Origin: an uncultured Chthonomonadaceae bacterium | Lineage (GTDB): Bacteria; Armatimonadota; Chthonomonadetes; Chthonomonadales; Chthonomonadaceae | Assembly: GCA_963835065.1 (NCBI GenBank) | Contig: CAWIEK010000053.1 | Location: forward strand, 320,001-384,000 | DNA length: 64,000 nt | Direction of reading: 5' to 3' | In this document: in pieces, positions 35,320-54,600 of the stretch | Numbering within the stretch: the first letter of the stretch is position 1 | How the letters are laid out: every line of letters starts with the position of its first letter | Notes under the pieces: model-generated | Told to the model about the DNA's origin: nothing | What the model saw: only the letters and a program-made list of their open reading frames with translations | Databases searched by the model: none | Program-made: the position numbers and the translations under genes

Positions 35320-37674
35320 ATGCGATGCAATCTATGGGCACTATATCCTGAAACACTTTGCGCGGCAGGATTTTTTATGCTTGCGCCCCTGCTGGCATGC
35401 ACCGCGCCGCAAATGCCTGCGCCTGCCGCCGCATCCGAAACGGGGCAAACAACGGCTCCACAAACCTTTAGATATACCAACAAACTCATCGGCGCGGCCA
35501 GTCCGTACCTCCTGGAACACGCGCACAATCCCGTCAACTGGCAGCCCTGGGGCGCGGAAGCGTTGGAACAGGCGAAACGAGAAAACAAGCCGATTTTCCT
35601 GTCCATCGGCTACTCCGCCTGCCACTGGTGTCACGTCATGGCGCGGGAAGATTTTGAAAACGAGGAGATCGCCCAACTCCTCAACGCCAATTTTGTGTGC
35701 ATCAAGGTGGATCGGGAACAGCGCCCGGATGTGGACGCGCAGTACATGCTGGCCGTGCAGATGATGACGGGTTCGGGTGGCTGGCCCCTGTCCGTGTTTC
35801 TCACGCCGGAGCGCAAGCCATTTTTCGGAGGCACGTACTTCCCGCCCGCAGAATTCAAAGCGCTGCTCGGCAAAGTGATCGAAGCCAACAAAACCCAACC
35901 CGAACAGATACGCGCCTTGTCCGACAAAATCACGAGCGCGATGAAGGACGCGCCCACTTCCCCAACAAGAAACGCGAACGCCAAATTGTCGCCAAGCCTG
36001 TTGGACAACGCTGTTGCCGCACTAAATCATAGTTATGACCCGACAAACGGCGGCTTTGGAACACGCCTTAAATTTCCCGACGCGCCGAAACTAGCCTTTC
36101 TGATTGCCCGCTGCCGCGCAAACCATGCCCCAAAGTTGCTCAACATGGTCACGAATACGCTGGATCATATTGCAGACGGCGGCGTTTATGATCAGTTGGG
36201 CGGCGGCTTTCACCGTTACAGCACGGATGCCATCTGGCGCGTGCCCCATTTTGAAAAGATGCTGTACGATCAGGCGCAGTTGGTACAAATTTATCTCGAC
36301 GCCTACGAACTGACCCACACGCCGCGCTACAAACAGGTTGTGGAGGAGACATTGGCGTTCGTACAGCGCGAAATGCGCGACCCGGCGGGCGGATTCTGGT
36401 CTGCATTGGACGCCGACAGCGAGGGCGAGGAAGGCAAGTTCTACCTGTGGACGCCCACACAAATCAAAGCCGTTCTTGGCGACGATGCGGACTTGTTCAG
36501 CGCAGCGTATGGCGTCACGGCGAAAGGCGATCTGGAAGGCAAAAGCGTTCTGCACCGAACCTCGGACGGGGCAGAGATCATGCAGCAGTACCACATCAAG
36601 CCGGAAGAATTGTGGCAACGGCTTGACGGATTGCGGCAAAAACTGCTGACGGCGCGGGCACAGCGCGTTCGCCCGCACACGGACGACAAAGCGCTGGCAA
36701 GCTGGAACGGCCTGATGGTGGGCGCGTTTGCCCACGCGGGGCAGGTTTTGAACAATGCCGCGTACCGGCAAACAGCGATGGAAGCCGCCAACTTTCTCTT
36801 GCAGAAAATGACGGTAAACGGCAAACTGCTGCACAGTTACCGGGCGGGCAAAGCGGAAGTGGGCGGGATGCTGGAAGACGATGCGTATGTGGCGAACGGC
36901 CTGCTCGACCTGTATGCCGCAACGCGCGAGAAAAAGTGGCTGGACACCGCGCAAATGTTGGCGGCACAGATGACTTCGCAGTTTGAAGACGCGGCAAACG
37001 GCGGCTTTTACAGCACATCGGATCAAAGCGAACTGTTGACGCGCTTAAAGAGCGGGGATGATAACGCCACGCCTTCAGGCAACGGCATGGCGGCACAGGT
37101 GTTGGCGCGGCTTGCCCTATTAACCGGCAAACCCGAATGGCGAACGCAAGCCCTGCGAACCGTACAAACCTTCGGCAGTCTGGAAACCCGCGTACCGGAC
37201 GCTTTTCCCATGCTGCTGACCGCGTACCAATCCCTCGGCACGTCCGCAAGCGCAGACATGCCGATACTGCCGGGAACCGTCCAATTGCTGGCCCCGCCCC
37301 TTACCACAACACCCGGCGCGAAAGTGACCGTCGCCATCAAAGCGCATATTCCTTCCGGCTGGCACATCAACGCGCATGTCGCTTCAACCGCCGCTCTCAT
37401 ACCCACCAATCTGCGCCTGACCGCAACCCAGGACGCCAAACTGCTTGCCGTAACTTACCCAAACGGACAAACGCTCAAAACGTCGTTCGCCACAGAAGCC
37501 CTGTCCGTTTATCAAGGCGAAATCACTCTGCAAGCCGTCGTGCAAATCACCCCAAAACTCCCGGCTGGCAAGCATACGCTGCATTTTGAATTGACCTATC
37601 AGCCGTGCAATGACCGCGCCTGCCTGCCGTCGGCAAAAGCAACGCTGGATGTTCCCTTGAACATTTCAAAATAG
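35320..37674 (+). CDS. YyaL/DUF255 thioredoxin-domain protein fused to a DsbD N-terminal-like domain
   Basis: [37 protein letters not shown]; tail GWHINA...[11 protein letters not shown]. Confidence 0.9.
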
Positions 37675-37684
37675 CCTTCCATTG

Positions 37685-37807
37685 TGCCGGGGATTGAAAA
37701 TCCCCGGCAGGAAAGTGCAAGCGTCCTGCGGACACGCCATTCAATAATAGAGTATCGCGTCCGCAGAACGCTTGTTTTGTGTAGACGGGAATTTTCAATC
37801 CCCGGCA
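37685..37807 (-). repeat. REP/MITE-like four-hairpin element, reversed
   Basis: CCCGGCAGGAAAGTGCAAGCGTCCTGCGGAC is the reverse complement of the right half of 2485-2607. Confidence 0.85.
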
Positions 37808-37816
37808 GGAGGTAAA

Positions 37817-38980
37817 TCAGCGAAATACGCCTGTATGCCCTAACGAGTAGCGGCCCGGCTGCGGATACACGCACAACCCATGCGGGCCTTTGCCGACGCG
37901 GATACGGGCGCGTAACTTGCCGTTGCTCGTGTCGAAAGCGTACACTTCGGAGTTGTAGCGCCCGGACAGCCAGAGCGTTTTGCCGTCGGCAGACACGTTG
38001 CCCATGTCCGGGCTGCCGCCATGCGGGATGCGCCATTTGGCAATGGGCTTGCGCGTGGCGAAGGAAAGAACCGTTATGGTTCCCTCGTGCCGATTGGAAA
38101 CATACAAGTTTTTGGAGTCCCGGCTTGGATACAGGCCATGCGCGCCCGCGCCAGTTTGCACAAAACCGATCTTTTTCAACTTGTCGCCGTTTACGAGCCA
38201 CAGGCCATTACTCATCATATCCGCCACATAAAACACGCTACCGTCCGGCGACAGTTTCACATCCTGCGGCATACCTCCAGTTTTCAGTTTCAGCGTTCCC
38301 AGCACCTTCTGCTTTTCCACATCCACTTTTACCACGTCACCCGAAAACTCGCAGCTTGCAATCAGATACTTTCCATCCCGGCTGAAATCTATATGGTCTA
38401 CGCCCTTGCCGGGAACGGTCACGGAATGGACGAATTTCATCGTATGCGCGTCCCGGAAATCCAGACGCCGGAACCGCTCACAGACAACAATGGCGTAGCG
38501 GCCATCCGGCGTGAAATACAGGTTGTAGGGGTCTTCTACCCTGACGGGCTTGCCGTGAATTCCCGTAACCGGGTCAACGGGGGTCAGGCTATTTCCCAGA
38601 TCGTTGGAAATCCACAGCGTTTTCATATCCCAGGAGGGCGTAACGTGCTGCGGCAGTTTCCCGACCGCGAAATGGTCTACAATCTGATATGTTTGGGCGT
38701 CAATCACATCTACGGTATTGCTGCCGCTGTTGGGCACGTAAACGCGATTGAGAACCCCGCGCATAAACGGGCTGAGATTGTTGGCCCTGTCCGCCGCGTA
38801 CACATCCTTCGCGTCCACAAGCGGCGGAACCGCGCCTGCCGTAACGATAAACATATCCGGCGCATTCGTTGTGGGCGTTCTAACCGGTGCGGCTATCGGT
38901 TTTGTACCAGGAGTGATTGTTGAGGAAGAAGTTGAATGTCGGCATCCGGTCAGCCCTGCAAGAGCCGCGAACAGCAGCAT
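37817..38980 (-). CDS. YVTN/YncE-like beta-propeller lipoprotein
   Basis: Lipobox LTGC; repeats VYVPNSGSNTVDVID, LSPDGSVFYVAD, VGKGPHGL; start uncertain. Confidence 0.85.
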   Translation of the reverse strand: MLLFAALAGLTGCRHSTSSSTITPGTKPIAAPVRTPTTNAPDMFIVTAGAVPPLVDAKDVYAADRANNLSPFMRGVLNRVYVPNSGSNTVDVIDAQTYQIVDHFAVGKLPQHVTPSWDMKTLWISNDLGNSLTPVDPVTGIHGKPVRVEDPYNLYFTPDGRYAIVVCERFRRLDFRDAHTMKFVHSVTVPGKGVDHIDFSRDGKYLIASCEFSGDVVKVDVEKQKVLGTLKLKTGGMPQDVKLSPDGSVFYVADMMSNGLWLVNGDKLKKIGFVQTGAGAHGLYPSRDSKNLYVSNRHEGTITVLSFATRKPIAKWRIPHGGSPDMGNVSADGKTLWLSGRYNSEVYAFDTSNGKLRARIRVGKGPHGLCVYPQPGRYSLGHTGVFR

Positions 38981-39080
38981 AGATAGATAAGCGCGTAGAC
39001 CAGGTGTTGAAAACGCCTGTCTCGGTGGCGTTCCGCCAGGCGTCCTACGGACGCGCAATGCTTGTACAATGGATTTTCGT

Positions 39081-39262
39081 CCGTAGGGACACAACATGTT
39101 GTGTCCGCGCTCACCTCTACCGGAGGAGGACACGCCGCCGCCGGAGGACACGCCGCCGCCGGAGGACACGCCGCCGCCGGAGGACACGCCCGCCGCCGGA
39201 GGACACGCCGCCGCCGGAGGACACGCCGCCGCCGGAGGACACAACATGTTGTGTCCCTACGG
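39081..39262. repeat. Inverted GTAG-type REP pair enclosing six 18-bp tandem repeats
   Basis: CCGTAGGGACACAACATGTTGTGTCC ... (GGAGGACACGCCGCCGCC)6 ... GGACACAACATGTTGTGTCCCTACGG. Confidence 0.88.
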
Positions 39263-39325
39263 CATGGGCCATTAAGATGGTGGTTTTCAACCATTGGCGA
39301 CACGAAAAATAAGAATATAAGCGCG

Positions 39326-40278
39326 TTATCGTCGTTTCTCCAATCCAGAAGTTGCGGCGGTTTGCGGCAAGAATTTTTGAACGCGCCTGCCGTTGACTTC
39401 GGCTACGTACACCGCCCCCTGATCGTCTACGCACAAGAGATGGGCGCGGCGCATCTGTCCCGACGCGCTCCCGGTTTTACCCCACCGCGCCAGGCGCTTG
39501 CCGTTCAGCGAATAGATACTGATGGTATCCGCCAGTCCGTCCGCGACGAACAAGCGTTGATCGGGCGTGATGAACACGCCAAACGGATGCCCCACATTGC
39601 GCCATTGCGTCAGGAACTTGCCGTCCGGGGTGAATACTTGCAGGCGCGCATTGGCGCGGTCCACCACGTATACGCGCCCCTGATTGTCTACGGCAAGCGA
39701 GTGTACCAGCCGAAATTGTCCCGGCCCGCTCCCCCGCTTCCCCCACGCGCCGATGTACCTGCCGCTCGAATCCAGATGCACAACGCGGGAATTGCCGTAG
39801 CCGTCGGCGATATACACATCTCCTTTTGGTCCGAAAGCGACATCGGCGGGCTGATCGAAATGCGTGGCATCGCAGCCGGGCGTATCGCGGACTCCCCATG
39901 CCGCCAGCAGTTTACCTTCGGGCGTATATTTGTACACTTGATGGCGGCCTACGTCTGTGAGCCACAGATTGCCGTTCGGGTCTATGCGGCAGCCGTGCGG
40001 ACTGGTAAACAAGCCCTGCCCCCAGGAGCGCAGATAATGCCCCTGCCGGTCAAACACCAGAATGGGATGCGGCGTTCGCTGGAATACAAACACCTGCCCC
40101 TGCCGATCTGTAGCAACCCCAACCACCATATTCGCGCCATAATCCGGCGGACGCGCGCCCGTATGTGAGGGCCAGTCAGGAACCGGGCGGTATGTTGTTT
40201 GCGCCCCGGCAGGACGGAACAGGCAGGAAAGCAGGCAGAACACCCACAGCAAACTTGTAAAAAATGGAGACGTTTCAA
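39326..40278 (-). CDS. NHL-repeat beta-propeller protein (peptidyl-glycine alpha-amidating lyase-like)
   Basis: PHGCRIDPNGNLWLTD, FDQPADVAF...YIADGYGNSRV, VYVVDRANARLQVF; start uncertain. Confidence 0.82.
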
Positions 40279-40283
40279 GTTTT

Positions 40284-40352
40284 CCGGGTACTGAAAGTAC
40301 CCGGCAGGAAAGTACAAGCGTCCTGCGGACGCGGGAATCTTGAAGCAGAGAA
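40284..40352 (-). repeat. Half copy of the REP-like element, reversed
   Basis: CCGGGTACTGAAAGTACCCGGCAGGAAAGTACAAGCGTCCTGCGGACGC. Confidence 0.8.
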
Positions 40353-40437
40353 TTACTTCCGCGAATTTGAAACGCGCTTATAAAAAATCGGCAGGAACTT
40401 GTCATTATGTGGCGAATCTTACGGCATTGGAATTTGA

Positions 40438-41622
<1,185 letters not shown>

Positions 41623-41634
41623 AACGGGAGTAAC

Positions 41635-41779
41635 TCTTCACCACCAAGACACCAAGAACACCAAGATAATACAGGCCACTAAAAGGCACAAAACCGGAGA
41701 CCTTTTCGTTCTCTCCTGCAATCTCGCAACATCTTTTTGCTCGTTCTGCTTGGTGTTCTTCGTGTCTTGGTGGTGAAGA
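41635..41779. repeat. CACCAC-type element with 31-bp arms (1 mismatch)
   Basis: TCTTCACCACCAAGACACCAAGAACACCAAG ... CTTGGTGTTCTTCGTGTCTTGGTGGTGAAGA. Confidence 0.9.
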
Positions 41780-41806
41780 ATTATAAACGGAAAGCAGCAG
41801 GGCAGG

Positions 41807-42364
41807 ATGGAACGGTACAACCTTCACAAAGACGTGAGACAATTTGCCATTCACAAGCGCTGGACGACGTATGCCGGAAGGCTGCTGCATGGGTTCTGGG
41901 CGCTGATTCCCCTGCTATTTTGGGTCTTCCTGTGGCAGCGTGACCCGCGCCCAACTCCGATTCTGTTGCCGCTGCTTCTGTTAGGACTTCCCCTGACAGT
42001 AGTTCTCGGCTGTGGCGCGTATCTGCTGTGGAAGCTGAGTACGGGCGGCGATACATTTGTGTTTGATGCCCGCACCCACCTGTTTGAACACAACCGGCAT
42101 GTGGTCAGCCATTGGGACGGGATCGCGCAAATTCAGGTGATAGATGTGCCGCACCAACGCGACAAACGGGGCATTCAGGCCATGCTGAACCTGGATGAGT
42201 ATTACTACACCTACCGGCTTGTCGTGCTGCTCCACAACGGCAAAAAATACGCCCTCGACGAGTGCGGCAACAAACAAACCATTGCGGAACTGGCGCAGGA
42301 AGTTGCCGCCTACACCAACAAAGTTGTCGTCAGCGACGTAGCCAATGCCGGCTGGTTCGCCTGA
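41807..42364 (+). CDS. Hypothetical membrane protein (2 TM plus soluble domain)
   Basis: 185-aa ORF between two repeat elements. Confidence 0.7.
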   Translation: MERYNLHKDVRQFAIHKRWTTYAGRLLHGFWALIPLLFWVFLWQRDPRPTPILLPLLLLGLPLTVVLGCGAYLLWKLSTGGDTFVFDARTHLFEHNRHVVSHWDGIAQIQVIDVPHQRDKRGIQAMLNLDEYYYTYRLVVLLHNGKKYALDECGNKQTIAELAQEVAAYTNKVVVSDVANAGWFA

Positions 42365-42404
42365 TTCAAACGCCTGCGCCGCGTGGCTGTAACAGAGAAG
42401 AAAC

Positions 42405-42510
42405 GAAGAACAGGAGAGAGGAACCGCGAAACACACGAACCAAACGAAAAGAGGACAAAAAGAGGACAGGAAATAGACAGTATTAAGCGGATTAGCAGGA
42501 TTAAAAGGGT
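42405..42510. repeat. AACCGCGAAA-type left arm plus a CAGGATT-type run
   Basis: GGAACCGCGAAACACACGAACCAAACGAAAAG; can pair with 43143-43190. Confidence 0.8.
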
Positions 42511-42818
42511 ATGTAGAGTCATCGTCGAAATCTTGGCAATACAGCGCTTCCAGCCCGATGTCTCGTTGTGTCAGGTTGTAGGAGTGAGGCATCGTGGCCT
42601 CCGCAGCGTCAGGGCGAGCGGGAGGGGTGAAACATAGGACTTGCACCTCCCTTCCTGTGTGTAACGCCTGAAATGTAGACGTTTGTTACCTGTTAGACGG
42701 TAGTATCGGGCAAAGGGTTCGTTTCTTTTGCGTTATTTTGCTTTTTTCTGCCTCTTTTTTCTATCTTTTTCCTGTCTGTTTTTGCGGGAGGGTTGCTATT
42801 GGTACTGTGGGAATGGGA

Positions 42819-43107
42819 ATGAAACACACCTGCCCTGTTTGTGGATACAACCAACTGAGCCGCGCGCCGGAAGATTATACAATCTGCCCCTGCTGCCGTA
42901 CGGAGTTTGGCGCAAGTGACCAGTTCTGGACACACGCGGAGTTACGTCAGGACTGGATTACGCGCGGAGCGCAGTGGAGCAGACGTTATGTTCCCGGAGC
43001 CGCAGGGATGGTCAGCCGCCGAGCAGCTAAAAACCATTGGTTACATCTGCACGTATGCGAATTTAGAAAGCATCGCGCGATCAAACCCAACACCGGCAAC
43101 AGTTTAA
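42819..43107 (+). CDS. Orphan cysteine-rich (CPCC-like) immunity-type protein, frame broken near 42990
   Basis: CPVCGY...ICPCCRTEFG..D..WTHAELRQDW...GWSAAEQLK; paralog of 43615-43947. Confidence 0.75.
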
Positions 43108-43132
43108 CCCTCTTCGCCCCTTTGCGGTTCTT

Positions 43133-43173
43133 TTTGCCTTTCCTTTTTCGTTTACTTTGCGTCTTTCGCGGTT
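43133..43173. repeat. 41-bp direct repeat (second copy 44044-44084)
   Basis: TTTGCCTTTCCTTTTTCGTTTACTT[T/C]GCGTCTTTCGCGGTT, 40/41 identical. Confidence 0.92.
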
Positions 43174-43194
43174 CCCCTCTCCTTGTCTTCCTTA

Positions 43195-43203
43195 TGGTAT
43201 AAT
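43195..43203 (+). promoter_or_regulatory. Extended -10 promoter for the toxin-immunity pair
   Basis: TGGTATAAT, then AGGAGG RBS at 43236-43241. Confidence 0.6.
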
Positions 43204-43249
43204 TTGGCAGTAGGAACCAACACTCTATGGGTTCAGGAGGGCACAAATT

Positions 43250-43618
43250 GTGCCGGTTGCCATCAATTTTGCAAGTTCGACACTTCTTACCAGACATTAT
43301 GCTCGGCATAAGGGAGACTTTGCTGTAACAAGCGAACAAGAGTATCTGAAAAAGGCCAAGAACTTCCTGAACACTCCTCTTGCCAGCAACACGAACATTG
43401 AAGAAAAACAGCGCAAAAGAGGCGGCGTCTTAGTTGAGGAGTGGGTTCGCTATGACAAAGCAACAAACGAATTTGCTGTCGTGTATATGGACGGCACAAT
43501 TGGGACTTACTTCAAGCCAATGATGTTGAGCGCGGCTCCAGCAGGTATGCCGCGCGACAAGATGCACAAGCGTTCAAGCAATTATCAGTATTTTCTGGAT
43601 GAGTGTGACTTACCATGA
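43250..43618 (+). CDS. Stand-alone polymorphic-toxin-like nuclease domain
   Basis: HYARHKGDF....EYLKKAKNF...VRYDKATNEF....DGTIGTYFKP resembles Rhs/CdiA C-terminal RNase tips; ATGA overlap with next gene. Confidence 0.7.
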   Translation: MPVAINFASSTLLTRHYARHKGDFAVTSEQEYLKKAKNFLNTPLASNTNIEEKQRKRGGVLVEEWVRYDKATNEFAVVYMDGTIGTYFKPMMLSAAPAGMPRDKMHKRSSNYQYFLDECDLP

Positions 43619-43947
43619 CAGAGAAAATTATATGTCCGGTGTGTGGATACGATGCGCTGGAGCGGCCTATCCACAATTACGACGTTTGCCCAAGTTGCCT
43701 GTGTGAGTTTGGCGTGAGTGATGCTGACTGGACTTACGCGGAATTGCGCGAGGATTGGATTGCTAATGGCGCGCTATGGGCATGGGGAAGCAAGGATATA
43801 CCGGAGCTTCGTGGCTGGTCGGCAGTCGAGCAATTGAAAAACATAGATTACCACTGCACATTGCAGGACATACGCAGCATAGCTCGTTTTCGAGAAACTT
43901 CTGATGGTATTGAACGGCCTGAGCTAAAGTCGGCGTTCGGCGCATAA
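43615..43947 (+). CDS. Cysteine-rich (CPCC-like) putative immunity protein
   Basis: CPVCGY...YDVCPSCLCEFG; translationally coupled to the toxin-like gene. Confidence 0.75.
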   Translation: MTEKIICPVCGYDALERPIHNYDVCPSCLCEFGVSDADWTYAELREDWIANGALWAWGSKDIPELRGWSAVEQLKNIDYHCTLQDIRSIARFRETSDGIERPELKSAFGA

Positions 43948-44131
43948 GCTAATGCCTTTCTAACAAGGATGCTGTTATGTCGCGCCTCGCAGGTGCAACG
44001 AAACGATTGTTCAAAGATGCACAGATGTGCTTAATTTTACTCCTTTGCCTTTCCTTTTTCGTTTACTTCGCGTCTTTCGCGGTTTGTATGTCTCCCCCTC
44101 TCCTCTTCTCCTCCCTTCTTCCTCCCCTTCC

Positions 44132-46699
44132 CTACGCCTGTTCCCACTCCGCAACCAAACTACGCGCTCTGGCAATGGCGCGTGTATCCTGCGTGGTTTC
44201 CAGCACCTGAAGCGCCTGCCGCACCCAGCGCAATGCCGCTGCCGAATTACCCTGCCTATTATAGAACAACGCCAGATTGATTAACGTCTCTCCTTCTCCA
44301 ACGCGATTTCCGGCCTCCCGGCGAATGACCAAGCTTTGCTCAAAGCAGGCAATCGCTTCCTCCCAATGGCCTTGACCCTCATAGACAACGCCCAGGTTGC
44401 TAAGCGTAATTGCTTCTTCCAACCTAGCCTTTAACTCTCGAAACAGGAGTAAACTTTGCTCAAAGCAGGCAATCGCTTCTTCCCAACGGCCTTGTTGCTG
44501 ATAGACATTGCCCAAGTTGGTAAGGGTTCCCCCTTCTCCAATGCGGTCGTCGAACTCGCGGCAGGTCGCTAAATCTTGCTCAAAGCAGGCAATCGCTTCC
44601 TCCCAACGGCCTTGTTGCTGATAGACATTTCCCAGGTTATTGAGCGTTTGTCCTTCGCCAATGCGGTTGCCAAATTCACGGAAGATTGGAAGGCTTTGTT
44701 CATAGCAGGCAATCGCTTCCTCCCAACGACCCTGTGTGTTGTAGACAACGCCCAGGTGAGTGAGAGTCCGCCCCTCGGCTGCTTTCTGGCCCGCAGTCCG
44801 TGTGACTCGTAAGGTTCGCAGGTTCAGTTCCTCTTGTTCCGACCACAGGCCGCGCAACAGCAGAAAACCGCCCATATACGCCGAAATGTATTCTATGACC
44901 TGCCATCTTTCTTCCCAACTCGTCTGCACTTCCGCAGTTTCGGCAGCATAGACGGCGTTGCGCCATTCTGCATCCAGAACGGCGTTGTTAGAATGGTCGT
45001 TAATGTTGTTGTGACCCATTGCTAATTGAGCATAGTAAATGCTGTAACGTTGCCGACGCGCATCCGCATTGGGCAGGTCATTCAATCTGGCAGCCGCGTA
45101 GAAGCGCGTGGGCCGCAGGAAGGTGTAGCGTCCGCAGCCATCCGCATCGAAGCCTTGCAGGTTTACAAGGCTGGCCTCGTGCAGTCGGTCCAGCAGGGTT
45201 TCGGCGTCTTCAATCTGACAAACCTCTTCCACCCGCGCAGCCGTGAACGTATCGCCGAAGACTCCCAGGCAGGCCAATCCTTCCTGAAACTGCGGCTCCA
45301 GTAGAGTGTATGACCAGTCCAAGCAACGAGTTAGAGACTCGTGACGGATGCTGGCATCGCTGTGAGCGTGTCCAGGCTGATGTCCACTGTACGGGCCGAG
45401 CGGCGTGTCGCGCAAGCCTTCCGCCATCTTTTGCAGCGAGCGCTTGCCCACATACGCCGCCACCAGTTCCAATCCCAACGCCTGACACTCCGTATACTTC
45501 AGAATGTCTTGGAACCACTTGCGCTCCCCACTTGAAACCTGCCAGCCGTCCACTTTTAACTGCGCCCGCTCCACAAACAGCCGTTCCGCTTCTTCGTCCG
45601 TCATGCCGGCAACCGGAACCTCTTTTTCCACATTGTCCAGTTTTACGGTTTCGCGCCCCGTCACCAATAAGCGCGCGTCGGGACAGGTGAGCAGCAAATC
45701 GCGCAGCAGGTCGCGGACTTCGACACAATCCACCGACTCGTAGTTGTCCAGCACGAACAGCGCGGCCTTGTCCTGCAAGGCGGGCAGCAGTTGTTCCAGC
45801 GTGGCCGGGTTGCCTTCCACCTGCATGGCCCGCCCTATCTCTTCCACAACCGACGCCTCAGATGCGAGACGGTCGACAAGCGCAACGAAATACAGGCCAT
45901 CCTTGAACGCGCTTGCGACTTGCAGGGCGCAGGCGACGGCCAGCCGGGTTTTGCCCATGCCGCCAAAACCGTGCAGCGTGACCAGCCGCACTTTTTCGCG
46001 GTCATTCAAGCGCTCGGCGTAATGGCGCAGGATTTTGGCCTGCAAGTCGCTGCGGTCAATATAGCGATTGAGTTCGATGCCGAACCCTTTAGGTATCCAG
46101 CGCGTTCCCGGCTCGCCCCGCGACGTGCCTTCCCCCTCCCACAGCAGTTCATGGATGTCTTCCGGGGTGAGAAAGTCTTTCAATCGGCGATTCTTCCAGT
46201 GCTGCCATTGGTATGCCTGCCCGTTTCCCGCTTCCTCGCAGGCTTTGTGCGACACCAGTATCTGCCCGCCCACGCCCGGCGCTCCTATACGTGAAGCGAG
46301 ATTCACTTCCAGATTTCGGTACTTGCCGTTCTCGAAAAACACTTCCTGCGAGGCGCGGTAAATGCCCATCCGCACCCGAACCGTCCACATTTTGCCTTCC
46401 GCTTCCTGCGCAGTCGGCTCTGCTTGTGCCGTAATCGGTTCCGCGTGGAGGCTTTGCTGAATGGCGCAGGCGCAGGCAAGAGCATCGCGGGCATGTTGGA
46501 ACGTGACCATAAAGCCGTCGCCGGGATGATCCACTTCATAGCCATTATGCGCCACAAACACTTCCCGCAAGCGTTCGTCATGCGCTTCCATCAAGGCTTT
46601 GTAGGCATGGGGAACCGCGCGGCTGAGTTTTGTAGACCCTTCCACGTCGGTATACAGCAGCGTAATCGTTCCCTGCGGCGGCACAATCGCTTCGGACAT
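44132..46699 (-). CDS. Class III nucleotide cyclase + STAND NTPase + TPR protein
   Basis: LLYTDVEGST, GDGFM, VRMGI; GFGGMGKT, FVLDNYE, LLVTGR; 40-aa TPR repeats. Confidence 0.9.
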   Translation of the reverse strand: MSEAIVPPQGTITLLYTDVEGSTKLSRAVPHAYKALMEAHDERLREVFVAHNGYEVDHPGDGFMVTFQHARDALACACAIQQSLHAEPITAQAEPTAQEAEGKMWTVRVRMGIYRASQEVFFENGKYRNLEVNLASRIGAPGVGGQILVSHKACEEAGNGQAYQWQHWKNRRLKDFLTPEDIHELLWEGEGTSRGEPGTRWIPKGFGIELNRYIDRSDLQAKILRHYAERLNDREKVRLVTLHGFGGMGKTRLAVACALQVASAFKDGLYFVALVDRLASEASVVEEIGRAMQVEGNPATLEQLLPALQDKAALFVLDNYESVDCVEVRDLLRDLLLTCPDARLLVTGRETVKLDNVEKEVPVAGMTDEEAERLFVERAQLKVDGWQVSSGERKWFQDILKYTECQALGLELVAAYVGKRSLQKMAEGLRDTPLGPYSGHQPGHAHSDASIRHESLTRCLDWSYTLLEPQFQEGLACLGVFGDTFTAARVEEVCQIEDAETLLDRLHEASLVNLQGFDADGCGRYTFLRPTRFYAAARLNDLPNADARRQRYSIYYAQLAMGHNNINDHSNNAVLDAEWRNAVYAAETAEVQTSWEERWQVIEYISAYMGGFLLLRGLWSEQEELNLRTLRVTRTAGQKAAEGRTLTHLGVVYNTQGRWEEAIACYEQSLPIFREFGNRIGEGQTLNNLGNVYQQQGRWEEAIACFEQDLATCREFDDRIGEGGTLTNLGNVYQQQGRWEEAIACFEQSLLLFRELKARLEEAITLSNLGVVYEGQGHWEEAIACFEQSLVIRREAGNRVGEGETLINLALFYNRQGNSAAALRWVRQALQVLETTQDTRAIARARSLVAEWEQA

Positions 46700-46870
46700 C
46701 AAGGCTGCCCTCCCTGCTTCCAAATTGGTACGGAGTGACTGAGCAACGGCGTCTCTCCCCACAAACCAAAAATCTCCAACAAAACAATAAACCGGCCTTG
46801 CAACAATGCCGGAGCGTTCGCCGCGCAAACCTGATTTTCCTCCCTCACCGCCTTACGCAGAAAAGAAGAA

Positions 46871-46928
46871 GAGGAGAAGAGGAGAGGGGGAGACATAGAA
46901 ACCGCGAAAGACGCAAAATAAACGAAAA
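46871..46928. repeat. 58-bp inverted repeat of 44056-44113
   Basis: 55/58 identical to the reverse complement. Confidence 0.92.
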
Positions 46929-47036
46929 CAGACGAACTGAAATTTTGTGCAGAAGGCGGAAACGCTTGCCAATAGAAGAAAGGGGAAGCCCTGTTTCCCC
47001 TTTCCTTTTGTTTTGCATTTTTCAGGAGAACCGTTC

Positions 47037-47747
47037 ATGCGCTCCCGCAGCCTTGTCCGCCATCTAATTCGTACCCTTTTGCTGTCGGCCCTCTTCTTTC
47101 TCGCGCTGGCGTCGGCGCAGGCGCAACAGCTTATTTTTGATAATACCTTCCGCTACACCAGTCAGGAAACGCGCGACGACGGCACGGGCATCGGAACCTG
47201 TATCACGCAGGTTGCCGCCGATACGCAAATCGGCAGTTTCGCCGCCCCGGTCAGCCTCACGCAAGCGGGCGATCTGGAATTTCTAATTTTCGATTCCAAC
47301 AACGGCGCGTTGCTGTACCAGAGCGCGCCCAAAGCCTACGCTTTCGACAACGGCGTGGTTTCCCTGCACCATTCCGACCCGTTCCAATTCACGCTGCAAG
47401 CGGGACACCAGTACGACATAGGCGTTTTGGCGGATGTGCCGCTGGTGTACCAGTGGTGGTTCCACAGTTTTGCCGCTTCGCCCGGCAAGCCCCCCTACAG
47501 TTTCACTGAAAACGGCATCACGTCGGCAGGCAGCCTCAACGCCAACTTCAACACCTACGCCGGCACGTTCGCCCACCCTCACGATGACCTCGCTCCCGGC
47601 CTCGTGGATATGGGACTCGTCCTCTACGGCCCTACCGCCAATCCGTCCGCCGTTCCCGAACCCGGCGCAGTAACGCTGATCGCCGCTCTCCTCCTGTCCA
47701 CCGCCATGCTGCTCCGCTGGAAGAGAATTCACCACCCGCTTCGCTAG
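47037..47747 (+). CDS. PEP-CTERM sorting domain protein
   Basis: CAGGAG RBS, signal peptide ending AQAQ, VPEPGA + TM + RWKR. Confidence 0.88.
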   Translation: MRSRSLVRHLIRTLLLSALFFLALASAQAQQLIFDNTFRYTSQETRDDGTGIGTCITQVAADTQIGSFAAPVSLTQAGDLEFLIFDSNNGALLYQSAPKAYAFDNGVVSLHHSDPFQFTLQAGHQYDIGVLADVPLVYQWWFHSFAASPGKPPYSFTENGITSAGSLNANFNTYAGTFAHPHDDLAPGLVDMGLVLYGPTANPSAVPEPGAVTLIAALLLSTAMLLRWKRIHHPLR

Positions 47748-48035
47748 AGGCACAGAGGAAGAGGGGGAGAAGGGGAGAAGAGGAGAAGAGGAGAGTGGGA
47801 ACCGCGAAACACACGAACTAAACGAAAAAAGAACAAAAGGACAAGGAGAAAAGCATCATAGAAACCATGAGGTGACTGTACTTCTTTACCGTCTTTGCTT
47901 CTTTGCGGTTTTTGTTTTTCCTTTTTTCGTTTTGGTTCGTTTCTTTCGCGGTTCCCCTCTCTTCTCTCCTGTTGTCCTTCTCGCATCGGCTTTTCCTCTG
48001 TGTCTCTGTGTCTCTAGCGAAGCGGGTGGTGAATT
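47726..48035. repeat. Nested ACC[AG]C-type inverted-repeat elements
   Basis: Outer 32-bp arms (1 mismatch); inner GGGAACCGCGAAA (47797)...TTTCGCGGTTCCC (47956). Confidence 0.9.
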
Positions 48036-48043
48036 TTTCCTGT

Positions 48044-48061
48044 TTGTGCGATTTTTCACAA
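48044..48061. promoter_or_regulatory. Rex/CRP-like palindrome upstream of ctaA
   Basis: TTGTGCG-ATTT-TTCACAA vs TTGTGAA-N4-TTCACAA. Confidence 0.5.
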
Positions 48062-48174
48062 CCTTCGTTCGTAGACTAGGCAACAGCGTAAATGCGGGGT
48101 ACAATGAGGGAGAAGGATGAAGGATGAAGGATGAAGGATGAACAGTCGTCCTCCTTTCGGCTTCCGGCCTTCAC

Positions 48175-49140
48175 TTGAGGGCACAGCGATTGCGCGTTAA
48201 AGCGTTTGCCAAAATCCGGTTTCCGCAGTATGCGTGGGGCGTGTTGGTGTACATGCTGTTTGTTGTCGTCTGGGGCGCGGTGGTGCGCGCGTCCGGGTCG
48301 GGCGACGGGTGCGGCAAGCACTGGCCGTTTTGCGGCGGGCAACTCATTCCCGTATTTCAGCGGCTGGCTACCCTTGTTGAGTTTTCCCATCGCATTTCTA
48401 CCGGGCTGATTTTGCCGCTTATCGGGTTGCTGGTGGTTTGGGCGTGGCGGGCGTTTCCCCGGTTCCATCCGGTTCGATTGGGCGTGATGCTGTGCCTGCT
48501 GTTTACCTTGACGGAAGCCGCGTTTGGCGCGATTCTGGTAAAGTTCGGCCTTGTCGCCGGGAACCAATCCATTGCCCGCGTCGTGATGATGTCACTGCAC
48601 CTTGTCAACACGTTCGTTCTGCTGATGTGTCTTGCGCTCACGGCCTGGTGGAGCGGCGGCATGCCCCGGTTCACCTTCCGCAATTCGGGAACGCTTGGAC
48701 TGGCGCTCGGCGCGGGATTGGCCGCAACCCTGTTTCTCGCCGTGACGGGCGCGATTACCGCCCTGATTGACACGCTGTATCCGGCCAGCAGTTTGTACGC
48801 AGCCTTGCAGCAGGATTTGAACCCCGGCGTTCACGTGCTTATTCGCCTGCGCCTGCTGCATCCGTTTATCGCTGTTGCGGTGGGCATTTATTCGGTTCTT
48901 GTCGCGCGCTATGCAGTCCGCGTTCGCCCGACGTATGACACGCGGCGTTTTGCCCGCATGGTTGTGGTTTTGTTCGGCATCAATATCGTGGCGGGCTGTC
49001 TCAATGTCGTGACGCTGACGCCTATCGGGATGCAATTGCTGCACCTGCTGCTTGCCGATTTACTATGGATCGCGCTGGTTCTGCTGACCGCTTCCACACT
49101 GGCGCAAAGGTACTATCCGAGTGAAGATTTCGACCGCTGA
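48175..49140 (+). CDS. ctaA: Heme A synthase (COX15/CtaA)
   Basis: GAVVRASGSGDGCGKHWPFC, VEFSHR, LHLVN, LHLLLA; start uncertain. Confidence 0.88.
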   Translation: MRAQRLRVKAFAKIRFPQYAWGVLVYMLFVVVWGAVVRASGSGDGCGKHWPFCGGQLIPVFQRLATLVEFSHRISTGLILPLIGLLVVWAWRAFPRFHPVRLGVMLCLLFTLTEAAFGAILVKFGLVAGNQSIARVVMMSLHLVNTFVLLMCLALTAWWSGGMPRFTFRNSGTLGLALGAGLAATLFLAVTGAITALIDTLYPASSLYAALQQDLNPGVHVLIRLRLLHPFIAVAVGIYSVLVARYAVRVRPTYDTRRFARMVVVLFGINIVAGCLNVVTLTPIGMQLLHLLLADLLWIALVLLTASTLAQRYYPSEDFDR

Positions 49141-50143
49141 CACGATTGCCAAAGACACGCTTGCCACTGCCGCCGCGTCTCCTATACGCGAGGCGGTTGT
49201 CGCCGGTGAAACCACGCCCTGCATGACGCCGGAAGTGACGGTTCCGCACCTGCTTGCGCCGCCGTCCATACGCGGAACCATGAACGCTTACATCGCGCTG
49301 ACCAAGCCGCGTATCATCAGCCTGTTGCTGTTTACAACCCTTGCGGCCATGTACATCGCCAATGACGCGCGACATCCCGTGAGTTTTGTATTGTTTTGGG
49401 CGGTCGCTATCGGCGGCTACATGATGGCAGGCGCGGCCAATACGATTAATATGGTGATTGACCGCGACATTGACGGACGCATGGCGCGTACCGCCAAACG
49501 CCCGACCGTGACGCAGTTTATTTCCACGCGCAACGCTCTGCTGTTCGCCCTGATCCTTTCGGTTGTGTCGTTTGCCCTGCTGTGGGGCGCGGGCTGCCTG
49601 CAATCCGCTTTGTTCGCGCTGGCAGGATTAGCCTTTTATGTTGTCGTATACACTCTTATCTTGAAGCGCCGAACGTGGCAGAACATCGTATGGGGCGGCG
49701 CGGCAGGCTCGTTTCCGCCACTCGTCGGCTGGACGGCGGTAACGCACACGATGCACCCGCTTGCATGGACGCTGTTCGCCATTATCTTTGTCTGGACTCC
49801 CGTACACTTTTGGGCGCTGGCGATTTTGCTGAAGGAAGATTACACCAAAGCGGGTATTCCCATGCTGCCGTCCGTGCGCGGTGAGCGCGTAACCGTCAAG
49901 CAAATCAGCTATTACACGGCGCTTACCGTTGCGGTCACGCTGCTGCCGTTTGCGCAGCATCAGGTGAGTTATTTATATCTGGCGGGCGCAGGGCTGCTCA
50001 ATGCCGGACTGGTTGCTTACACCGCCAAACTGTACCAAAAGCCGGAACGCCCGCAGGCCTCGCACCTGTTTCACTATTCGATGATCTATCTGGCCGCGCT
50101 GTTTCTGGTCATGGCGCTTGACCATAATTTGCTAAAACCTTAA
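49121..50143 (+). CDS. ctaB: Heme O synthase (protoheme IX farnesyltransferase)
   Basis: LTKPRI, DRDIDGRMARTAKRP, WTPVHFWALA, AGIPMLP. Confidence 0.95.
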   Translation: MKISTADTIAKDTLATAAASPIREAVVAGETTPCMTPEVTVPHLLAPPSIRGTMNAYIALTKPRIISLLLFTTLAAMYIANDARHPVSFVLFWAVAIGGYMMAGAANTINMVIDRDIDGRMARTAKRPTVTQFISTRNALLFALILSVVSFALLWGAGCLQSALFALAGLAFYVVVYTLILKRRTWQNIVWGGAAGSFPPLVGWTAVTHTMHPLAWTLFAIIFVWTPVHFWALAILLKEDYTKAGIPMLPSVRGERVTVKQISYYTALTVAVTLLPFAQHQVSYLYLAGAGLLNAGLVAYTAKLYQKPERPQASHLFHYSMIYLAALFLVMALDHNLLKP

Positions 50144-50353
50144 CAATTGACGATTTTCAATTGCCGATTGCCGATTGGCTGCGCACCTAGACAAACGAGA
50201 GGTTCACCGGGTATAATGCGGGCAGTTTACACTTCAAGCCTGCATGTTCCGCTTCTCGTTCGCGCCTTTCCAGCCTTTGCTGCCTACATAAAATTTCCCA
50301 ACTCGCGTCATAGTCACGCGAACATCACGCAGCAGGGATTTGAAGCGCAGGCA

Positions 50354-50371
50354 TCGTGAAAAATTGCACAA
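50354..50371. promoter_or_regulatory. Rex/CRP-like palindrome upstream of the ACIII operon
   Basis: TCGTGAA-AAAT-TGCACAA. Confidence 0.5.
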
Positions 50372-50773
50372 ATTTCCGTTGAAAGCAGTAAAACGCGGCA
50401 GGAAACTGCGCGACGCTCGTTAAAATACCAATGCGAATGTAGGCGCAGCGAAAACAAGGCCAACGAGAATGGGGAACCATCCCGCAACGAAAGCGTAATT
50501 GCTGCCAAACCTGCTCCAAATTTTGATTGAGAAAAGTTGTTCCCGCTTTCCATGTACCTGCCTGAGTAGTTGATAGTTCATAGTTGATAGTTGATAGACA
50601 CGTAGGAACTACAAACTTTCAGTGCCCGCCGCTTGTTTGAATGTGTATTTGGTTTGTGTTCGATTGTTATGGCTCTTGTTGAGCGTGTTTGTCCAGAACT
50701 GAAATGCCTATGCCGGTGAATTGCGCGCCCGTTGCGACGCTGCCACTATCCCGGATATGCCTGGAGCGTGTTG

Positions 50774-51544
50774 ATGGCTCAAATTTTCCACCCCGCAACC
50801 AATGTGCTTGCAAAGGCCAGCCTGCTGTTTTTCGGCATCATCGGGCCGACGGCGACGCTGCTCATTGCCAGCGGCGTTTCCCGTATGTCGTTCAATACCA
50901 AAGTGGGCGTTCCTCTGCCGCAGCCGGTCCCGTTCAGCCACGAACACCATGCCGTCGAGTTAGGAATTGACTGCCGCTATTGTCACGGCGGCGTCGAAAA
51001 GTCCTCCTACTCGCCCCTGCCGGCTACGGAAGTGTGCATGTCGTGCCATTCGCAAATTTGGACGGACAGCCCCCTGCTCGATCCCATCCGCAAAAGCTAC
51101 GCCGAAGGCAAGCCGATGCTGTGGAACAACGTGAACGCCGTACCCGATTTCGCTTATTTCCCGCACAACATCCACATCAACCGGGGCATTTCGTGCAACT
51201 ACTGTCACGGCCCCATTCAGAAGATGATGATGGTCTACAAGGGCAAGTCGTTCTTCATGGTGTGGTGCCTGAACTGCCACCGCCAGCCGGAGAAATTCAT
51301 TCAGCCCCGCGAAAACGTGTGGAAACTGTATCAGGACATTCAGCGCTTCGGCTACGCGGTTGATTCCAGCGGCAAGGACGAGAACGATCCCAAGCGCGAA
51401 GGGCTGACGCCGCGCCAGTACGCGCTCGCCGAAGGGCAGTCGTACATGAACAACGCCGACGAAACCCTCGTCAGCCAGCATTTGATTACTCAGTATCGCG
51501 TGAAGAAGCAGCAGCTTGCCGACTGTTGGATATGCCATCGGTAA
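50774..51544 (+). CDS. actA: Alternative complex III pentaheme cytochrome c
   Basis: QPVPFSHEHH; five CxxCH motifs. Confidence 0.92.
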   Translation: MAQIFHPATNVLAKASLLFFGIIGPTATLLIASGVSRMSFNTKVGVPLPQPVPFSHEHHAVELGIDCRYCHGGVEKSSYSPLPATEVCMSCHSQIWTDSPLLDPIRKSYAEGKPMLWNNVNAVPDFAYFPHNIHINRGISCNYCHGPIQKMMMVYKGKSFFMVWCLNCHRQPEKFIQPRENVWKLYQDIQRFGYAVDSSGKDENDPKREGLTPRQYALAEGQSYMNNADETLVSQHLITQYRVKKQQLADCWICHR

Positions 51545-51550
51545 GGAGGA

Positions 51551-51675
51551 AGTAGTCAGTAGTCAGTAGTCAGTAGTCAGTAGAAAAACCCTCTGCTAAC
51601 AAACCTTTACTGGCGCACAAACCTTTGAGTAGACAGGCATTTCTACTGACTACTGACTACTGACTACTGACTACT
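51551..51675 (+). repeat. (AGTAGTC)4 inverted heptamer element
   Basis: Arms 51551-51586 and 51640-51675. Confidence 0.93.
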
Positions 51676-51685
51676 CTACACCATT

Positions 51686-54600
51686 ATGAACAACCACAAC
51701 CAACCCCTCAATATGGACGCCATCCGCGCCAGGCTTTCGGGCGCGCGGGGCAAGCAGTACTGGCGCACTTTGGGCGAACTGCTGGGCAACAAAGATACGC
51801 AGGAGTTTCTGGCCGACGAGATTCCGCAGACCACGCGCATGGCGGGGCTGAACATGGATCGCCGCCAATTCCTGACGCTGGCCGGCGCATCCCTGGCTTT
51901 GGCTGGACTGAGCGGCTGCCGCTATAAGGAGCAGAAGAAGCTCGTTCCTTATGTGCGCAAGCCTGAAGAGATGATCGAAGGCATCCCGATGGTGTACGCG
52001 ACGGCCATTCCGAGCATCGGCGGGTACGGCTTGGGTTCGCTTGTCACGCAGCGCGAAGGCCGTCCGATTAAGATGGAAGGCAACCCCGACCATCCCGCCA
52101 GTTTGGGACGCTTGGACGCGCTGGGACAGGCTTCCATTCTGCCGCTGTACGACCCCGACCGCTCGCAGGTTGTCACCAGTCAGGGCGAAGTGAGTTCGTG
52201 GCGCGAGTTTTTTGAGCGGGCGCGGGGCGCGTTCGCCTTGCAGCGTGGTTCGGGCGGCGCGGGTATCCGCATCCTGACTGAAACCGTTACCTCCCCTACC
52301 CTTGCCGCGCAAATGCAGGGATTGCTCGCGCAGTTCCCCAACGCCCGGTGGGTGCAGTATGAGCCGGCGGGACGCGACAATGTGCGGGAAGGCGCAAGGC
52401 TTGCGTTCGGCGCTCCCGTCAATTCGGTTTACAATCTTGACAAAGCGAAGCGCATCCTGTCGCTTGACGCCGACTTTTTGATGTCCATGCCGGGAAGCGT
52501 CCGTTACGCCCGCGATTTCATTAACGGACGCCGGGTGCGCGGCGCAACCAACGCTGCGGACTTGAGCCGCTTGTACGTCGTGGAATGTTCGCCGAGCATC
52601 ACGGGCGCAATGGCCGACCACAAATTGCCGCTTCGCCCAAGCCAAATTGAGCCGTTTGCCCGCGCGGTTGCCGCCGGGTTGGGCGTTGCGGGCGCAAATG
52701 CCGGTACGTTGGACGCCAACGCGCAGAAACTTGCCAATGCGGTTGTGAAAGACCTGCAAGCCGCGCCGCGTGGTTCCAGCGTTGTCATTCCGGGTGATTT
52801 TCAGTCGCCTGCCGTTCACGTTCTTGCCCATGCCATTAACGAAGCGTTGGGAAGCGTTGGTACAGCCGTCACGCACACCGATCCGATTGAAGCCGCGCCG
52901 ACCAATCAGTTCAACGATTTGGTTCAGTTGACGAATGACATGCGCGAAGGCAAAGTGGACGTGCTGCTGATTTTGGGCGGCAACCCGCTGTACAACGCGC
53001 CCAAAGATTTAGACCTGCGCGATCAAATTCGCAAGCCCGCTTTCCGCGCCCATCTGGGACTGTACGAGGACGAGACTTCCGAGTTGTGCCAGTGGCATTT
53101 GCCGGAAACGCACTTTTTGGAAACGTGGAGCGACATTCGCGCTTACGACGGCACGGCTTCTATTATTCAGCCGCTCATCGAACCTTTGTACAGCAATAAA
53201 TCGGCGCATGAAGTGCTTTCCGGCCTGACTGAAGAGCCGCGCGACAGTTATACGATTGTGCAGGAGCATTGGGCGCGTCAGAATACGACGGGAACCTATG
53301 ATTTCAACAAGCTGCTGCACGACGGCGTGATTGCCAATACCGCTGCCGCGCCCCGAACGACAGCGTTCAACGCGGGCGTGATTGCGTCCCTGCCCGCCCC
53401 GGCTCCGACTGCGCTGCCCGCGAACGGCTTTGAAATCACCATTCGCCCCGACCCGCATATATGGGACGGACGCCACAGCAACAACGGCTGGCTGCAGGAA
53501 CTGCCCAAGCCGTTCGTGAAAGTGACGTGGGACAACGCCGCGTACATCAACCTGAACACGGCGGCCAAACTCCACATTCAATTGGATACCGATTACGCGC
53601 ACCCGTCCGACATTATTGAAGTATCGTTCAAAGATGGCAGCGGTACGCCCAGAACGGAAAAAGTACCGGTCATTATTCAGCCAGGCGTACCTGACGACAC
53701 CATCAACCTGTTTTTGGGTTATGGGCGGACGCGGGCGGGCAGTTTGGGCAACGACATCGGCTACAACGCTTACAACCTGTTTACCACGACTGCGCCCTGG
53801 CATTTCCCCGCGACAGTGGAACGATTGTCGGACACGTACCCGCTTGCCGTGACCACGCACCATCAGACTATGTATGGCCGCGACATCGTGCGCGTCGGCA
53901 GCATTTCGGAATTCAAGCGGCGTCCAAGCCTCGCTCCCGAAGAGGGGGGAGAACACGCGGGCGAAAACGGCAGCGACAAGCATGAAACGCCTAACCGCGA
54001 AGAGAACCTTGCGATTAAAAACGAAAACGGCGGAAAAGCGTTGGAGCAGCCCAATATATACCCCGCCGCAGAGTGGAAATGGCCGCAGCCGGGGGACACG
54101 CAGTATGGCGCGTATGCCTGGGGCATGGTGGTAGATCAGGGCGCGTGTATCGGCTGCAACGCCTGCATGGTCGCGTGTCAGGCGGAAAACAACATCCCGA
54201 TTGTCGGCAAGCAGCAGGTGCTTATCGGGCGGCACATGAACTGGATTCGCATTGACACGTATTACGAAGCGAACCCGGAACACCACGAGGATTACGTGAC
54301 TAATCCCGGCACGTACTTCCAGCCCATGATGTGCCAGCATTGCGAGCAAGCGCCGTGCGAACCCGTGTGCCCGGTTGCCGCCACGATTCACAGCCACGAG
54401 GGCCTGAATCAGATGATTTACAACCGGTGCATCGGAACCAAATACTGTTCCAACAACTGCCCGTACAAGGTGCGCCGCTTCAACTTCCTGAACTACGCCA
54501 ACTTCTTCGAGGTTCCCGTGATTAAGATGCGGTACAACCCGGAAGTGACCGTGCGCGGGCGCGGCGTGATGGAAAAATGCTCGTACTGCGTCCAGCGCAT

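Follow-up and report, generated by a model that had tools for sequence, protein, structure and literature searches.

The repeat arms that border the accessory genes between an esterase gene and ctaA are whole and broken copies of a hairpin family of 110-330 bp that is spread over the genome, and whose arm types also bracket GxxExxY genes. We consider it probable that they are REPIN-like hairpins of a GxxExxY-associated family, which settled behind stop codons, were split by insertions and were caught once or twice in local homology events. The basis of this model is what we observe of the copy number, the hairpin form, the position after stop codons, the nesting, the presence and absence of elements, the link to GxxExxY genes and the lack of enrichment at gene gains and order breaks. 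The preliminary description of the window (the whole 64,000-nucleotide stretch of DNA analysed here) had proposed an integron-analogous system with the arms as recombination sites, and our analysis removes this claimed analogue.

The genome under study (G000) is 92% complete, in a 71-contig assembly with several frameshifts. The relatives used were G001 (97% complete), G002 (a congener, 80% complete, ~80% nucleotide identity), G003, G008 and G017.

Arms and genes between the esterase gene and ctaA

Direct inspection of the sequence found all the arms and genes described before at their positions, and each gene or gene pair in 41635..48035 does have a bordering arm. The features are as follows:

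41631..41783, unstranded: empty hairpin with CACCAAG-type (B) arms of 35 nt, 94% complementary; DNA fold -37 kcal/mol
41807..42364, plus strand: predicted membrane protein, 185 aa, accessory; an ORF with no Pfam family over the cut-off
42400..42502, plus strand: left half-element, an A arm and a GACAGGATT-type arm, cut by repeat X
42503..42820 (end approximate), minus strand: repeat X, a separate dispersed repeat of ~300 bp and not an arm; 157-168 copies in the genome (157 by BLAST, 168 by motif)
42819..43110, plus strand: frameshifted CPCC-like gene ("orphan immunity"), in two frames, 44-54% identical to the downstream copy
43104..43193, minus strand: right half-element (D and A arms) of a private subtype, head at 43172
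43250..43618, plus strand: putative small toxin, 122 aa, GC 47%
43615..43947, plus strand: putative immunity protein, CPCC-like, 110 aa
44040..44125, minus strand: right half-element (A arm and purine heptamer run) of a private subtype, head at 44083, at the stop of the STAND gene
44132..46699, minus strand: guanylate/adenylate cyclase - NB-ARC/NACHT - TPR (STAND) gene, by Pfam
46860..46940, plus strand: left half-element, head at 46901
47037..47747, plus strand: PEP-CTERM-type secreted protein, with VPEPG, a hydrophobic stretch and a basic tail visible
47726..48035, unstranded: nested empty hairpin with outer C arms, a heptamer run and an inner A hairpin at 47797-47956; fold -96.8 kcal/mol

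A Pfam profile search backs the esterase, the cyclase-NB-ARC/NACHT-TPR protein, CtaA and CtaB. The cargo had been described as conflict, signalling and surface genes; Pfam supports this for the cyclase-STAND-TPR gene, but the toxin, the immunity protein and the PEP-CTERM protein have no Pfam family over the cut-off. Both CPCC-like proteins have Pfam matches below it (E 0.001), the 122-aa ORF has no clear Pfam family, and for 47037..47747 neither PEP-CTERM nor any other Pfam family passed. There is a Colicin-D-like Atlas lead for the 122-aa ORF (at 0.87), and 8 homologues were found among 8 candidates, itself included. Because of this lead, and because a homologue of the ORF stands directly before a CPCC gene at 8 further loci, the two genes may fairly be read as a putative toxin-immunity pair. 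The STAND gene belongs to a 15-match family in the genome; at C2:33127-38764 two cyclase-STAND-TPR paralogs stand in tandem, with arm sequence before each.

The first hairpin begins 9 bp past the esterase stop, and its B arm type also flanks a GxxExxY gene on contig C19. At the other end, the empty hairpin reported at 47797-47956 exists as the inner hairpin of 47726-48035, and the outer arm of this element (47726-47747) provides the last codons and the stop of the PEP-CTERM gene. The 790-bp "gene-filled" hairpin stood only in part: both of its arms are real, but its content is mostly the unrelated repeat X and the frameshifted CPCC gene. It need not be one element, because its left arm (42400..42502, head 42423) is of a common genome-wide type, with 24 copies within 6 mismatches, and its right arm is of a private type. 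Repeat X, which also occurs in G001 and G002, has a conserved core of ~150 nt; a micro-ORF on its minus strand and a ribosome-binding-like site are also present, and Rfam gave no match for it. An Rfam scan of window positions 36000-53000 gave 7 sub-threshold miRNA/snoRNA hairpin matches, none of them meaningful. Further high-copy intergenic repeats (up to ~190 copies) lie at 37665-37817, 38999-39265, 40279-40362, 48094-48156, 50545-50638 and 51536-51690 of the window; they comprise REP-like palindromic families as well as heptamer-run hairpins that resemble the flanks of four-helix-bundle genes.

The three central arms form a private trio. In searches of the whole genome to 6 mismatches, 43133-43173 matches only 44044-44084 (40 of 41 positions identical), and 46871-46928 matches only 44056-44113, as a 95% inverted copy (53 of 58 positions in one comparison), unlike the arms at 42420 and 47798, which are of common genome-wide types. 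The low-GC toxin-immunity module lies inside the direct pair and the STAND gene between the outward-facing inverted siblings, the sole outward pair of siblings in the genome. Since no arm elsewhere in the genome is closely related to these three, they point to local copying or recombination related to the arms. A tandem duplication of immunity gene plus arm was ruled out, the CPCC genes being ~44-54% identical and the arms 98%. The 41-bp direct pair could be the trace of an insertion, or of a duplication, that was anchored by homology at an arm. The outward pair could have arisen by local inverted copying of one element followed by loss of the partner halves or, alternatively, from a circle opened in the centre of a hairpin, again with later loss of the partner halves.

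A dispersed hairpin family and its GxxExxY genes

The arms carry ACC[AG]C heads and are made of runs of 9-10-nt units. A first broad arm motif, with 157 shuffled matches, was dropped and a stricter one used instead. The arms had been treated as the hallmark of one locus, but the exact A-type motif alone has 140 matches in the genome, and the eight arm-type motifs from which the catalogue was made, all tuned on this genome, have 553 matches versus 1 in the shuffled genome. They give 275 arm loci, namely 166 empty hairpins and 109 true halves, and no half lies near a contig end. The first catalogue of hairpins held 128 inward-facing and 0 outward-facing cases. When A-arm left-right pairs within 6 kb are considered, 40 of 42 are spaced 108-211 bp apart, and the exceptions are this locus and one on contig C49. 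Hairpins are frequently nested, with elements inserted in the centre of other hairpins. An in-facing stop codon is found no more than 60 bp away from 149 of 176 intact elements, compared to 217 of 1760 random placements. For direct repeats of 2-8 nt, the ends of the 176 elements show no higher frequency than shuffled pairings; the ends were set by motif, and a target-site duplication shifted from them could escape detection.

Among the relatives, the A motif has 24 matches in G001, 33 in G002 and 9 in G008, and the motif search found it in neither G003 nor G017. Whole elements that are present in G000 are missing at the same site in G002. At one shared junction, G002:C1 (L016 10392-10625) has a C-type element and G000:C50:16294-16453 an A-type arm; different arm types at one site are also seen at C38:3420 and on C59.

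The window holds the densest arm cluster of the genome, with 6 loci in 6.4 kb, a density reached in 1 of 500 uniform placements, but this figure counts split elements twice. It falls to a common value when split halves are counted as one event, since at least 4 loci were reached in 213 of 500 uniform placements.

All three PF13366 (GxxExxY, PD-(D/E)XK) genes of the genome sit between inward arms, which are of types B, C, D and E, and their proteins are open frames with GxxExxY and D...ExK motifs. These arm types are those of the window's outer elements and of part of its inner arms. The A type is seen at no GxxExxY gene and is tied to the family by nesting and by the shared head. PF13366 is present in 46 of 121 genomes of the phylum, and an inverted repeat of the same arm style spans the PF13366 gene at 23 of 30 phylum loci (the best match per genome among those returned), compared to 1 of 56 shifted controls. 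RAYT (Y1) genes and four-helix-bundle genes were considered as arm partners and rejected, as different repeats flank the 4 Y1 and 3 four-helix-bundle genes. A single Y1 remnant is seen ~400 bp behind a half-element, within a duplicated-end insertion. A literature search on TIGR04256 and TIGR02436, which we presume to be the relevant accessions, returned nothing, and the passages found elsewhere carry GxxExxY only as a passing annotation. By analogy with REPIN/RAYT (PMC3116915) and TIRtrons (PMC3733652), as the portions of these papers available to us describe them, we infer that the GxxExxY protein may mobilise the hairpins, which are likely non-autonomous REPIN-like elements spread by it. The elements likely piled up after stop codons where gene turnover is fast, and later insertions would have split them there.

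Gene turnover in relatives and the rival explanations

The esterase-ctaA interval had been put forward as a place to look for gains and losses across strains. It is variable, yet the genome as a whole is variable too, and there is no conserved platform. The G002 ctaA is 87% identical, and similarity to the window starts at 48036, the base after the nested element; upstream of it there are a different repeat and a different PEP-CTERM gene. The esterase of G002 lies on another contig with other genes after it and no arm beside it, G001 carries other genes before ctaA, and the two flanks are unlinked in both genomes. A PEP-CTERM gene and a repeat element stand right before ctaA in both G002:C4 (L011 5995-6954) and the window (47037-47747), with genes and repeats unrelated. 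We did not adopt a PEP-CTERM "slot" at this place as an explanation, the G002 gene there being unrelated and such motifs numbering 135 in G000. The membrane protein and the PEP-CTERM protein were not found with these queries in G001, G002 or G017, and the best identity for the STAND gene in G002 is 35%. In G002 the toxin-CPCC pair has no arms, and its neighbours, labelled by inspection, are a Uma2-like gene on one side and a DNA methylase on the other; a paralog of the pair in G000 is also without arms. Across 11 CPCC and 4 STAND loci of relatives and paralogs, scanned with motifs tuned to G000 and with 6 of the 8 toxin loci covered, no arm stood beside a toxin-CPCC pair.

Closer strains were sought with a metagenome scan for the ctaA-upstream pattern, which gave 0 matches. 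Contigs from four sequencing runs in which the organism has a small share show relatives of ~90-95% identity that keep junction pieces of the locus: from the STAND start to the arm flank in X1, from the PEP-CTERM gene to the C arm in X1 and X4, and from the C arm to ctaA in X2. None of these contigs bridges an arm or shows a circle or an inversion, and their joints have short sides inside repeats. The toxin-immunity pair has low or no cover in the contigs of these four runs, to which we attach no weight.

For genome-wide controls, about one third of G002 (2.46 Mb) was set against G000, and this one genome pair gave 977 anchors and 974 junctions. Although nucleotide identity is ~80%, the order of genes is extremely scrambled, with 426 of the 974 junctions broken and half of the blocks holding a single anchor. 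The expectation that breakpoints fall in the arms was not borne out, as 42 of the 852 anchor ends at breaks carry arms, versus 64 of the 1096 conserved ones (p=0.42); an earlier 858-kb comparison also gave no enrichment (8/288 versus 16/402). Gene gains do not concentrate at arms either, as 6 of the 39 arm junctions hold non-homologous cargo, compared to 130 of the other 509 (p=0.18). Arms on both sides are seen at 2 of 40 clean insertions in G000 and 0 of 29 in G002; in one of these two cases the arms are unrelated and lie within a duplicated stretch of the upstream gene's end. These counts could mask a true recent effect, because G002 is only ~80% identical and old breaks dilute the young elements. 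Halves that point away from a conserved gene have disrupted junctions in 21 of 24 cases and hairpins in 22 of 41 (p=0.007, with one locus able to count in two classes), and therefore breaks fall inside elements. Several insertions carry direct duplications of 50-260 bp that take in part of an adjacent gene, either its start or its end (C57:53515-55135, C41:185916-187493, C44:31637-33538 and, in L067, C68:82498-86482), suggesting homology-anchored gene gain in this genus. Such gain would not be specific to arms, because these duplications include gene sequence. The direct pair around the toxin-immunity module of the window resembles these cases.

That one family forms both empty and gene-filled hairpins was confirmed, and it can be seen at orthologous sites of relatives as well. 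Four such sites were picked since they looked filled, and each may reflect a gain or a loss. On C49, A arms surround a frameshifted PARG-like gene in G000 and the same arms are empty in G002. The E arms on C65 hold a GH18-like gene in G000 and a 407-aa PAS-kinase-like ORF in G002. On C59, C arms enclose a HicB/RHH and PemK pair with a third gene, and G001 has an empty hairpin of another type. The GxxExxY element on C39 is shared by G000 and G002, and G001 is without gene and arms.

How should the arrangement in the window then be explained? An integron-analogous array, with the arms as site-specific sites from which a dedicated recombinase excises and re-inserts cassettes at one locus, could account for an arm at the border of every gene or pair, for the densest arm cluster and for the accessory type of the cargo. 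The remark that no integrase or attC is visible was confirmed by profile and motif search, and it counts against this explanation. The best TIGR02249 (IntI) score in G000 is 124 bits, versus a cut-off of 265, among 8 matches; 6 other tyrosine recombinases are encoded, none on the window's contig, and the interval holds no recombinase gene by Pfam search. The pattern RYYYAAC-N40..130-GTTRRRY, which we take to be the attC motif, was found on neither strand of 41501-48200 by plain motif search. Additionally, the arm order is L, R, R, L, L with two further whole hairpins, the STAND gene lies on the opposite strand, the arm ends are variable and the arms are of five or more types. With flanks unlinked in G001 and G002, no conserved platform, cargo homologues without arms elsewhere, the junction pieces kept in X1, X2 and X4, and no enrichment at arms, we regard such an array as very improbable. 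Contigs misjoined through arm repeats, in an assembly with this number of contigs and frameshifts, could also have created part of the arrangement, and no public contig bridges the arms; but the arms are short, at less than 100 bp, each of the central three is a unique variant, and the junction pieces recur across independent runs, which makes an artefact the least probable of the explanations.

A more serious alternative is active capture, in which the GxxExxY nuclease cuts the extruded hairpin and repair installs foreign or circular DNA between the arms, so that hairpins become dispersed slots with exchangeable content; were a circle to open within its own hairpin, the inside-out arm-STAND-arm unit would result. 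The filled and empty hairpin with the same outer arms on C49, the cargo swap on C65, the toxin-antitoxin cargo versus an empty hairpin on C59, the nesting of elements in each other's centres, the enrichment of half-arms at disrupted junctions and the unique sibling outward pair all agree with it, as do 8 left-right pairs within 1.7 kb, where about 1.1 are expected. However, one of these 8 pairs is an intact hairpin that slightly exceeds the clustering gap, two join unrelated arms, the remaining outward pairs are not siblings, and half-arms stop at differing lengths. Arm junctions have no excess of cargo or breaks, and when pooled, arm-bearing junction ends are disrupted in 43 of 65 cases, close to the baseline of 596 of 974. 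We consider active capture possible but unlikely. The general form of the idea, in which GxxExxY hairpins are dispersed capture slots whose centre the nuclease opens, between whose arms repair installs or swaps unrelated genes, and which could turn a gene and its hairpin inside out as in the arm-STAND-arm unit, is to us rather doubtful. If true, such slots would be an integrase-free route of cassette exchange in many phyla, and if the nuclease does open hairpins, GxxExxY, a widespread protein of unknown function, would gain a role in gene capture.

The passively spread REPIN-like hairpins described at the outset remain our preferred explanation, with the arms acting as ordinary short homologies and neutral landing ground rather than as sites of a dedicated cassette recombinase. 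The densest cluster, the private trio, the 21 of 24 halves and the cargo sites on C65, C49 and C59 are the points that count against it. The comparison also supplies a control for claims of this kind, since in this genus gains and order breaks are very common and are not concentrated at arms.

Relation to known repeat and capture systems

The comparisons here draw on portions of the papers cited. Integrons and CALIN resemble the window in that accessory genes are set apart by hairpin-forming repeats, and the definition of CALIN is a cluster of attC sites that share one strand (10.1101/030866). The window differs in having no IntI, attC-like motif or platform, and in repeats that lie on both strands and are dispersed over the genome; because it has no IntI, no attC-like motif and sites on both strands, we do not count it as a member of either. 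The hairpins are like MITEs in their terminal inverted repeats, absence of coding capacity and presence/absence, and small non-coding inverted-repeat elements may bound passenger genes, as in TIME-COMP (PMC13367494). The differences from what that source describes are that we see no target-site duplication signal, that no Tn3/DDE ends were recognised, and that cargo lies between element halves and not between two whole copies. As in the horizontal-transfer hotspots of PMC5635113, a short region has rapid gene turnover; the esterase-ctaA region is not a fixed core-gene interval as described there, because its flanking genes are unlinked in congeners.

The closest resemblance is to REPIN/RAYT systems as set out in the consulted parts of PMC3116915: abundant extragenic inverted doublets that form hairpins (here 166 of 275 loci), many singlets as remnants, insertion into or beside existing elements, and repeat types paired with a flanked gene. 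REPIN singlets are attributed there partly to DNA inserted into doublets. The differences are in sequence and in partner. Our arms have ACC[AG]C heads and 9-10-nt units in place of a GTAG/CGTC-tagged REP palindrome, and the flanked gene is a PF13366 PD-(D/E)XK gene, not an HUH Y1 transposase. TIRtrons and TIR repeats are alike in that terminal inverted repeats bracket a gene and gene-less dimers occur elsewhere in the genome, but TIRtrons encode tyrosine (HUH) transposases (PMC3733652) where here a GxxExxY nuclease-fold protein is found. PDDEXK_3 is listed with unknown function in the available part of PMC3424549. Our literature search, which covered neither subscription papers nor supplements, found no description of a REPIN-like family with a PD-(D/E)XK partner. 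For such a family, this analysis adds direct cases of filled and empty sites and of swapped cargo at orthologous positions, and the arms in the window are likely REPIN-like hairpins in a turnover hotspot with occasional cargo.
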